From IMG/VR virus record IMGVR_UViG_2698536435_000005: DNA of 4,503 bases. One strand, written 5' to 3'. Both the position numbers and the translations under genes were made by a program. Below the pieces are notes generated by a model that was not told where the DNA came from, did not search any database, and worked only from the letters and a program-made list of their open reading frames with translations. This DNA is from a virus. Taxonomy: Duplodnaviria > Heunggongvirae > Uroviricota > Caudoviricetes. Below, piece by piece: positions 2,586 through 4,503 of this stretch (position 1 is the stretch's first letter; each line of letters opens with the position of its first letter).

Positions 2586-3008
2586 TCACAGTATCGCCTC
2601 CTGAAAATTACCCTGATAGAAAGCCAGTACACGCTGCATAGCTTCGCTCTTCCGGCACTCGCGACAGATTATATTCAGGCGCCTGTCGTAGCGGCGTATT
2701 TCTCCGTCAGGTAATGACCAGATAAGGTCCGGATCAACAACAACCGGTTTCCTCACCTTTACTCTCGAGAGTTTTTTGCGGGCGCTTTGCCAGTCCTTGC
2801 GAGCCTGTTCAGACGGGAATAAGCCGTAGCCAGAATTATATACATCACCACTTGCGACCAGTTCTATGCATAAGCGACCGACAGACGCACGACTGATACC
2901 TGTTTCATCTGACAACTGCCGAATCGTGACCCGACCGTCCTGATGCACGAGTTCCACAATTCGCGTCTTCAGTTCTTCCCGCTGTTCGGGAGTAAAAGGT
3001 TTCGCCAT
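2586..3008 (-). CDS. ren: HTH protein, probably Ren-like (lambda ren family), 140 aa
   Basis: Sits immediately after the P-equivalent gene, as ren does in lambda. The C-terminal motif CRECRKSEAMQRVLAFY resembles what I recall of lambda Ren (KECRQSAAMKRVLAVY), and the N-terminus has a helix-turn-helix-like segment (TIRQLSDETGISRASVGRL). AGGAGG 4 nt upstream of the ATG at 3008. Confidence 0.6.
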   Translation of the reverse strand: MAKPFTPEQREELKTRIVELVHQDGRVTIRQLSDETGISRASVGRLCIELVASGDVYNSGYGLFPSEQARKDWQSARKKLSRVKVRKPVVVDPDLIWSLPDGEIRRYDRRLNIICRECRKSEAMQRVLAFYQGNFQEAIL

Positions 3009-3022
3009 AAATCCTCCTGAAA

Positions 3023-3769
3023 CTACTTAACAACCCTCGAATGGCTAACATTCGGACGCCAGCTCTCCCAGTTAAAATTCACCCAGCGCCCGCCGTTCAT
3101 GACCATGCGATCCATCACCCGCTCGCCGAGCAATGTTTTCATCACCTCATAGTTCAGGTTTGTCAGCATCCCCACGCTGCGCATCGACGCTGTCCGGCGA
3201 TCAACAATCTGGTGCAGCACCACCTGCTCGTTTTTCGTCTCGCGCTGAATGCCAATTTCATCAAGAACCAGCAGATCCACTTCGCACAGCTCCCGCAAAA
3301 ATTTTTCGCCTGACTGCCCGTCGTCATAGCTGGCGTGCAGGGCGCTCATAACATCAGCCACGGTAACCACAATCACTGTCTGACCGTCTTTCAGCAGGCG
3401 ATTCCCGATAGCTGCCGCTAAGTGATTCTTCCCGGTACCAGGTTTTCCGCTGAACGCAAAATTTGTACACCCGGTCATCAGTTCATCGGCGATGGATTTC
3501 GCCTGGCTTAACGCGTATCGCTGGCCGTCGTTCTGCACCTGGTAATTCGCAAACGAGCATTTACGGTGCAACGGCTGGATGCCTGAGCGATTCAGAATTT
3601 TTTCCACCCGCAACTGGCGATTCAGGCGGTTGATCTCCTCGCTACGTTTCTGGCCTTCAGCAAGTTGCCACTCGCGCCACTCCGCTACCGTTCTGAATGG
3701 GGCGGTTACATGTGGCGGGGTCAGTCGGCGGATGCGTTCCAGAACGCCGCCTGTCGCAATATTTTTCAT
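3023..3769 (-). CDS. dnaC: DnaC-family AAA+ helicase loader (phage P-equivalent replication protein), 248 aa
   Basis: Clear similarity to E. coli DnaC along the whole length, from memory: Walker A FSGKPGTGKNHLAAAIG, Walker B DLLVLDEIG, and RSGIQPLH...CSFANY and MLTNLNYEVM...LGERVMDRM blocks. ATG at 3767-3769 follows the upstream TAA (3776-3778) by two codons. Confidence 0.9.
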   Translation of the reverse strand: MKNIATGGVLERIRRLTPPHVTAPFRTVAEWREWQLAEGQKRSEEINRLNRQLRVEKILNRSGIQPLHRKCSFANYQVQNDGQRYALSQAKSIADELMTGCTNFAFSGKPGTGKNHLAAAIGNRLLKDGQTVIVVTVADVMSALHASYDDGQSGEKFLRELCEVDLLVLDEIGIQRETKNEQVVLHQIVDRRTASMRSVGMLTNLNYEVMKTLLGERVMDRMVMNGGRWVNFNWESWRPNVSHSRVVK

Positions 3770-4123
3770 GGTCCGTTACCCCCTGAAGCCTGGCGGGATC
3801 GCACTGTCCGGCAACGAGACGGTGTTAACCTGTCGGAGCAACGTCTCAGGCCGAACACCTTTCGGCGCGAACAGGCCCTGGTATTCATTGGCGATGCTGT
3901 GTCGAATCACCTGCTCAGGTGTAAAACCCTGCTGACGGAATTTTTCCAGTTCCCGTATCGCCCCGTTAGCGCCCTGCTCCGTTCGAATCGGTTTTCGCAA
4001 TGCCTGTCTGAACCGGACCCACTCATGCCAGAGTGTTTCCGGCAACCAATCGGGCAGCTCAATAGCCTCCGGCTCGAATTTTTTAGACGCTCGTTTTTGG
4101 CGAGGGGGAGATCAGTATTTAGA

Positions 4124-4174
4124 TCTTCCTCTTCCTCTTCCTCTTCCTCTTCCTCTTCCTCTTCCTCTTCCTCT
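4124..4174. repeat. perfect hexanucleotide tandem repeat (TCTTCC)8 + TCT on plus, (GAAGAG)n on minus; encodes Glu16 in minus frame B
   Basis: Read directly: 8.5 identical units with no interruptions, 51 bp. Confidence 0.95.
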
Positions 4175-4198
4175 GGTAACGCTTTTTGATCCGTTTGT

Positions 4199-4217
4199 GT
4201 AACGCTGGCAGCGTTAC
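4199..4217. repeat. perfect 19-bp palindrome GTAACGCTG-G-CAGCGTTAC (dyad GTAACGC-N5-GCGTTAC), with an extra direct half-site GTAACGC at 4176-4182
   Basis: Read directly. Lies inside the initiator gene just upstream (minus sense) of the hexamer repeat. Candidate protein-binding site (iteron or operator). Confidence 0.5.
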
Positions 4218-4406
4218 CTTTTCGTTTCAGTTCGCGTATTTTTGTTACTCGCTCGTTTGTAACCGCCCGTTTTTTTTAGAGCTTTTTCCGTTATGACGTT
4301 CAAAGTTAGGTAGAGAAAGCCCTCCGTCATTTTCGACCAGCCATCCAACCTGAATTAACGCATCAGCAAAACCAGACATAAAAGTGATGCGATCTATTGC
4401 ACTTTT

Positions 4407-4427
4407 TGTAACGCCGCGAGCGTTACA
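4407..4427. repeat. second copy of the same dyad: TGTAACGC-CGCGA-GCGTTACA
   Basis: Read directly. Shares the GTAACGC-N5-GCGTTAC half-sites and spacing with the 4199-4217 palindrome, ~210 bp away, inside the initiator N-terminal coding segment. Confidence 0.5.
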
Positions 4428-4503
4428 ATCTGCATTACCGTCTGGATTTGCCCCTATATTTCCAGACATCTGTTATCACTTAACCCATTACAAGCCCGCT
4501 GCC

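Follow-up and report, generated by a model that had tools for sequence, protein, structure and literature searches.

A hexanucleotide VNTR in an IS2-truncated ydaU pseudogene coincides with the Shigella MLVA locus SF1 and, almost certainly, with SS10

The closest described counterparts of the repeat analyzed here are two MLVA markers of Shigella, SF1 of S. flexneri and SS10 of S. sonnei, the latter of which reportedly goes back to Liang et al. in 2007. SF1 has a 6-bp unit, "TCTTCC", and lies in the gene with the locus tag S0917, annotated as a "putative bacteriophage protein" (Wang et al., 2009, BMC Microbiol 9:278, PMC2806262, Table S1). Reference strains carry 2-3 copies of this unit, corresponding to amplicons of 242/248 bp, and S. 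flexneri isolates yield either no amplicon (scored as N) or 1-4 copies, with a typability of 49.6% (PMC2806262). SS10, which likewise has a 6-bp unit, was resolved into 9 alleles of 2-10 copies among 1,672 isolates, with an allelic diversity of 0.46-0.57 (Filliol-Toutain et al., 2011, PMC3310650). Koh et al. (2012; PMC3420240) give the sequence of its forward primer, and capillary sizing of its PCR products in independent laboratories has given 6-9 alleles (PMC3310650, PMC3420240).

The gene in which the repeat is located, ydaU, is annotated in phage Rac, and its RefSeq product name is "phage replication initiator YdaU family protein"; the initiator function is thus putative and comes from annotation. 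In phage lambda, the initiator-binding iterons of ori-lambda lie inside the O gene. The Rac prophage has been reported to have an active origin, oriJ, and ydaUVW were listed among genes of undetermined function in a 2023 paper.

In the window, the whole 4,503-nt stretch of DNA that was analyzed, the repeat occupies positions 4124-4174 and reads on the minus strand as (GAGGAA)8 plus a partial unit. Its description as a hexanucleotide VNTR draws on TRF, the reading frame, a chance test and published MLVA primers. For this interval TRF reports a period of 6, 8.5 copies, 100% matches, no indels and a score of 102, so that the perfect hexamer array without degenerate copies described in the initial annotation is exact. 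The unit on the plus strand is TCTTCC, giving (TCTTCC)8.5, and the minus strand has the sequence A-(GAGGAA)8-GA. In the window, perfect repetition with period 6 extends over up to 51 nt, whereas in 1000 dinucleotide-preserving shuffles it never exceeded 17 nt (mean 11.9). The array is not a chance product, and in its perfect head-to-tail short units, repeated far beyond chance, it is a bacterial VNTR or microsatellite. The same 51 nt form a pure purine run, the runner-up in the window being 15 nt long, and in the ancestral ydaU frame they read (GAG GAA)x8, that is, 16 Glu. Directly 3′ of the array, at 4110-4125, two GATC (Dam) sites surround an 8-nt AT-rich core and form a short dyad, GATC-TAAATACT-GATC on the minus strand.

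The array is the MLVA locus SF1, with which it shares the unit TCTTCC, the host gene S0917, the flanking primers and the 248-bp amplicon. Both SF1 primers match exactly in the array flanks of intact ydaU genes (L002, L003 and L126), and an allele of 3 units is predicted to give a product of 248 bp, which is the published size. The window allele differs from those of S. flexneri, in which 1-4 copies are found and about half of the isolates give no product, in having 8 copies and in having lost the forward-primer site, which spans a 10-nt deletion described below. Only one SF1 primer site is retained, at 4356-4375 on the minus strand, where the primer CTGGTTTTGCTGATGCGTTA matches exactly. The deletion may contribute to the low reported typability of SF1.

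The array is also almost certainly SS10, an assignment that rests on the forward primer, the unit size and the copy range. The S. sonnei SS10 forward primer matches at 4308-4327 on the minus strand with one mismatch, and in S. sonnei 53G with none; its site lies 134 nt upstream of the array, which is the only tandem repeat that TRF detects in the region. The unit is of 6 bp in both cases, and the published 2-10 copies bracket the 3-8 found in S. sonnei-type relatives. The copy-number variability of the array is therefore already known and used for Shigella subtyping, and PCR sizing across 4100-4200, which the initial annotation had proposed, has in effect been MLVA practice since 2007-2009. 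A full-text search found no further papers with the SF1 primer strings, and nothing specific that links ydaU to a VNTR was found in the literature.

BLAST searches of phage records and of complete E. coli genomes identified the host gene as ydaU, with 90-97% DNA identity to annotated copies, and its position between ydaT and the DnaC-like ydaV agrees with this family assignment by synteny. Alignment to two intact 789-nt ydaU genes (L002 and L003), which encode 262 aa, shows that the window copy (3776-4443, minus strand) is a remnant of a ydaU-family ("phage replication initiator") gene that is spread over three frames and lacks about 140 nt of its 5′ end. The missing part was lost to IS2, the terminal ~61 nt of which truncate ydaU at 4443-4503, with a margin of 1-2 nt on the boundary; in BLAST, annotated IS2/InsD ends match the initial 61-62 nt of the minus strand at 100%. 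Two further lesions lie on the minus strand. A run of A8 at 4270-4277 (T8 on the plus strand), where the intact genes have A6, causes a +2 frameshift, and a 10-nt deletion, TCCCCCTAAA, at 4101-4110 between direct repeats of TCCCCCT causes a second frameshift. The remaining difference from L002 and L003 is in the repeat itself, 8 versus 3 GAGGAA units. The ydaU of the window is a pseudogene, truncated by IS2 and twice frameshifted, and the intact ORF expected of a YdaU-family initiator is absent from it.

Translation of the minus strand illustrates the consequences of these lesions. A 74-aa ORF (4469-4245) comes to a stop, the Glu segment falls in a second frame, and the C-terminal part (...PPGFRG*, ending at 3776) falls in a third, and the minus strand of the window has no start-codon ORF over the array. 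Because the ATG of the 74-aa ORF sits within the IS2 end, this ORF is an artefact of the fusion. BLAST found the IS2::ydaU junction in no complete E. coli genome; a search with the 74-aa fusion ORF located it on just one Logan contig, SRR6248939_70 (1.8 kb), in which the repeat has 4 units. With the frames split three ways, the 5′ end replaced by IS2 and no start-codon ORF over the repeat, the Glu16 tract that had been taken to be encoded inside an initiator gene does not exist as such. Because it has no start codon and is joined to neither half of the protein, it is the ghost of an ancestral coding frame. The earlier observation is therefore correct for the DNA feature and incorrect for the protein feature in the window. 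An ORF on the plus strand (3665-4189, 174 aa), in which the array would be read as poly-Ser, runs antisense to both ydaV and ydaU, lacks support and was rejected as spurious. Among relatives the A-run also varies in length (A5 at 1 locus, A6 at 153, A7 at 9, A8 at 15 and A9 at 4) and is a second slippage-prone tract of ydaU; the A9 of S. sonnei 53G brings the sequence back into frame while adding one Lys. The 10-nt deletion allele is common to 20 loci.

The remainder of the minus strand carries a cargo of ordinary lambdoid-prophage genes. Directly downstream of ydaU lies ydaV (3023-3769), an intact gene for a DnaC-like helicase loader (Pfam IstB_IS21; NCBIfam PRK12377, 8e-154, and DnaC, 1.7e-91). 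A DUF977/Ren-like gene (2586-3008), a zinc-ribbon ORF (2172-2585; phrog_1621), the gene for the epoxyqueuosine reductase QueH (1338-2024) and a Hok/Gef toxin ORF (955-1167), all apparently intact, are accompanied by a Rem-like ORF and by a DUF1367 gene (ORF 26-421) that is truncated by an IS600-type end. A 137-aa ORF of the cargo is IS-interrupted in some S. sonnei relatives, such as L127. At the left end, positions 1-72 are identical at 71 of 72 nt to part of the 94-bp unit of SF5, which is annotated as "IS600 OrfB", positions 57-76 resemble the SS1 forward primer with 2 mismatches, and in relatives the sequence runs on into a transposase gene. At the other end, most relatives with the pseudogene allele carry a different IS about 45 nt further upstream than the IS2 of the window, presumably IS600, because its end sequence matches the IS600 inverted repeat.

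The exact YdaV protein of the window occurs in many assemblies. Among the ten places listed, which include HE616528.1 (S. sonnei 53G) and CP014099 (S. sonnei FDAARGOS_90), nine have the same ydaU pseudogene allele, defined by the 10-nt deletion and A8 (A9 in 53G). Because the pseudogene allele is shared and the YdaV protein is identical, the window is assigned to an S. sonnei-type lineage, and it appears to be a fragment between two IS elements of a decayed Rac-like prophage from an S. sonnei-type genome.

Within this lineage the number of units varies widely. Eleven sequences with the same pseudogene allele have 8 units (the window and L129), 7 (L130, from S. sonnei 53G), 6 (L125 and L133), 4 (L124 and L127) or 3 (L128, L131, L132 and L134, the last from FDAARGOS_90). 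Eight relatives are identical to the window over 269 nt upstream and 1400 nt downstream of the array (1,669 nt), and carry 3, 3, 3, 3, 4, 6, 6 and 8 units. Such length differences on identical flanks are direct evidence that whole units have been gained or lost recently, and whole-unit differences between relatives whose flanks are otherwise identical characterize a VNTR. The initial annotation had suggested ongoing slippage or recent expansion, and the presence of 3, 4, 6 or 8 units on 100% identical flanks bears this out; its expectation that copy number would differ between strains in frame-preserving steps of 6 nt likewise agrees with the 3-8 units of the pseudogene lineage.

The comparison of repeat number across related prophages and isolates, also proposed there, revealed variation at every scale examined. 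Across prophage contigs the array ranges from 1.5 to 8 units. In 120 IMG/VR prophage contigs, which were picked by an exact flank DNA pattern, the run of Glu codons is 3 to 16 codons long, most often 6, and window-type alleles with at least 10 Glu are all in broken genes. A set of 80 prophage loci was picked by the N-terminal protein module, without a DNA-pattern bias, and comprises only close relatives with 96-100% identity; here Glu6 predominates (51 loci), followed by Glu8 (12), Glu4 (7) and Glu3 (5), and single alleles of 12 and 14 Glu occur in truncated ORFs. In complete E. coli genomes, a spread sample of 55 full-length matches, in which the unit number was inferred from the length of the span, shows the 3-unit size in 48, 2 units in 3, 4 units in 3 and 5 units in 1. 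In intact genes the array is short and fairly stable; in the pseudogene lineage of S. sonnei it is long and hypervariable. Intact genes with 11 Glu occur in another YdaU subfamily, so that long Glu tracts are compatible with function.

The probable role of the tract can be read from intact relatives. Intact YdaU corresponds over its full length to phrog_2509, "replication initiation protein" (E=3.9e-89), and separate PHROGs cover residues 4-131 and residues 118-262 or 138-249 ("primosomal protein", "replication initiation O-like"). No Pfam family matches intact YdaU, and NCBIfam gives only a match to the DnaT tail, which is below threshold. In 13 diverse intact ORFs, residues 1-137 (ending in ...ALP) are common and are followed by a Glu run, a Pro-rich stretch and then unrelated C-terminal modules. 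Because the tract is located at the junction of a conserved N-module and interchangeable C-modules, it is reasonable to regard the repeat of intact relatives as encoding an acidic spacer or linker, usually Glu6; this role is deduced from sequence comparison. The linker proposed in the initial annotation is thus appropriate for intact relatives, where the tract marks the module junction, and does not apply as a Glu16 linker to the initiator of the window, which is a pseudogene. In several subfamilies the purine run is broken by TTA or AAA codons and acidity is retained, which suggests that the tract is conserved at the protein rather than the DNA level across subfamilies.

The C-module of the window's subtype resembles the C-terminal domain of DnaT, a primosomal protein of E. 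coli (PDB 2RU8, E=9e-5; also 9ZBT). Residues ~89-179 of DnaT align with YdaU 170-262, the C-terminal 93 residues, and intact YdaU shares the ...NTVS.PDS.IPPGFRG tail. The relationship is distant, however: the N-terminal module of YdaU is unrelated to DnaT, and DnaT lacks the acidic, proline-rich linker. In YdaU homologues such as L004, L005, L011, L023 and L025, the N-module (aa 1-137) is joined after the Glu tract to at least 3 or 4 unrelated C-modules. The DNA around GCGTTACCAGAGGAAGAG is conserved and may be a recombination joint for module shuffling.

Near the array, on one side of it, lie copies of another motif, the heptamer GCGTTAC. A 19-bp dyad, GTAACGC-N5-GCGTTAC, which is iteron-like and a candidate binding site, lies at 4199-4217, 25 nt from the array; a second such 19-bp dyad lies at 4408-4426, and a half-site at 4176-4182 on the minus strand abuts the array (GCGTTAC-CA-array). 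In the intact gene L002, the dyads and half-site correspond to gene nt 160-185 and 367-408. The array-proximal perfect 7+5+7 dyad is kept in 63 of 70 distinct upstream variants, which contain 22 different central pentamers, and depending on the subfamily it is read in two frames, as KGNAASVT or as KVTLAALQK, in a sample chosen by a DNA pattern that itself includes the last half-site. Because the arms are invariant over 22 pentamers and two reading frames, there is good evidence that the dyads are under a DNA-level constraint independent of frame, as expected of a cis-acting site, and it is plausible that they are origin or initiator-binding sites.

This arrangement recalls lambda in that ydaU is directly upstream of the helicase-loader gene ydaV, as O is of P, and in that 19-bp dyad-symmetric motifs lie in the coding sequence of a putative initiator near its interdomain linker. 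It differs from lambda in that the N-module of ydaU has no detectable sequence homology to O and no Pfam match, and in that two dispersed dyads with half-sites take the place of four tandem iterons, with no adjacent AT-rich region.

Very probably, the array is a hexanucleotide VNTR that is prone to slippage and selectively neutral, in that part of an IS-disrupted ydaU pseudogene which corresponds to the linker, within a remnant of a Rac-like prophage. One alternative is that the array is a working part of an origin internal to ydaU, in which the dyads would serve as iterons and the array as a spacer or unwinding element, so that copy number would tune both origin geometry and linker length. 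The window contains 6 copies of GCGTTAC against 0.47 expected, a number that was reached in 0 of 200 shuffles, and five of them (4176-4426) are no more than 250 nt from the array; relatives have the heptamer at a density of 11.1/kb within the first 450 nt of ydaU versus 0.78/kb outside, and some subfamilies have extra copies at 12-nt spacing. Together with the constraint on the dyad arms, the active oriJ reported for Rac and the parallel between ydaU-ydaV and O-P, these findings lend the dyads some weight as parts of an origin. The GC content of the array, however, is 49%, and a 30-nt stretch with at most 34% GC, as expected of an unwinding region, was found neither near the dyads nor near the array. 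The dyads are also ~200 nt apart and do not form a tight iteron cluster, and the retention of acidity where the purine run is broken points to conservation of the protein. The only retrievable oriJ positions, those of primers that De Paepe et al. (2014) used for semi-quantitative PCR, are at 3358-3376 and 3494-3512, ~600 nt away; because both map inside ydaV, they do not locate oriJ, and a sequence-level definition of oriJ was not found in the available literature. The reading as a whole is therefore doubtful, and a function of the VNTR as part of an origin is unlikely; in the window the matter is moot, because the initiator is dead and any origin there would be inactive.

Intramolecular triplex DNA (H-DNA) requires mirror symmetry. 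The tract might be thought to form such a structure and thereby to cause replication stalling or recombination that makes the site special, a notion favored by the 51-nt pure purine run, which far exceeds the next longest run of 15 nt, and by the location of the tract at a mosaic junction of gene modules. The repeat is homopurine and nonetheless not a mirror repeat: its longest perfect arm is 2 nt, its best fold-back identity is 68%, and the reversed GAGGAA is not a rotation of the unit. Since, in addition, most alleles contain just 18 nt of repeat and one-unit steps between identical flanks bear the mark of simple slippage, H-DNA is highly improbable here; of the initial suggestion of a polypurine/polypyrimidine tract capable of non-B DNA, the pure run of 51 nt stands, and the case for non-B DNA is weak. 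Assembly or sequencing errors in a low-complexity region would be another source of apparent copy-number differences, and the window does resemble a short-read contig bounded by collapsed IS copies, while sequencing errors might in theory account for the homopolymer differences from A6 to A9. At 18-51 nt, however, the array is shorter than a sequencing read, finished chromosomes carry 3, 4, 6, 7 and 8 units, A8 and the 10-nt deletion are found again in numerous independent assemblies, and the 6-9 alleles of SS10 were sized by capillary PCR in independent laboratories, so that an artefact is almost certainly not the explanation. A phase-variable contingency locus was also considered and rejected, given that the 6-nt unit is divisible by 3 and keeps the frame, the array is within the coding region, and the gene is already off.

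Under the preferred account of a neutral VNTR, ydaU in the S. sonnei-type lineage is dead through IS interruption, the +2 change in the A-run and the 10-nt deletion, and units would be gained and lost by slipped-strand mispairing during replication, the standard mechanism for perfect short tandem repeats. Because ydaU is dead in this lineage, such gains and losses would be selectively neutral, as gene decay implies, and the array, with no function in the window, would drift in length within a range of 3-8 perfect units (2-10 units are published). In intact relatives, the tract would act as a short acidic spacer between the conserved N-module and the C-module, which is DnaT C-domain-like in the window's subtype; this linker role is likewise read from sequence. 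Against the neutral account, the array abuts conserved DNA motifs and could have a cis role in functional prophages.

For Shigella typing, the 10-nt deletion of S. sonnei-type alleles and, in some strains, the IS2 or IS600 insertions a few hundred bases upstream affect PCR typability and short-read in-silico MLVA; beyond Shigella subtyping, the value of the locus is little. It is very unlikely that, in functional Rac-like prophages, the dyads are oriJ-type initiator sites and the abutting VNTR a dual tuning element, but if this were true, each slippage event would alter both the acidic interdomain linker and the spacing of the origin, and hence the capacity for prophage replication from strain to strain. 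The frame-independent dyads in ydaU offer a cheap, testable lead to the position of a Rac-type origin.
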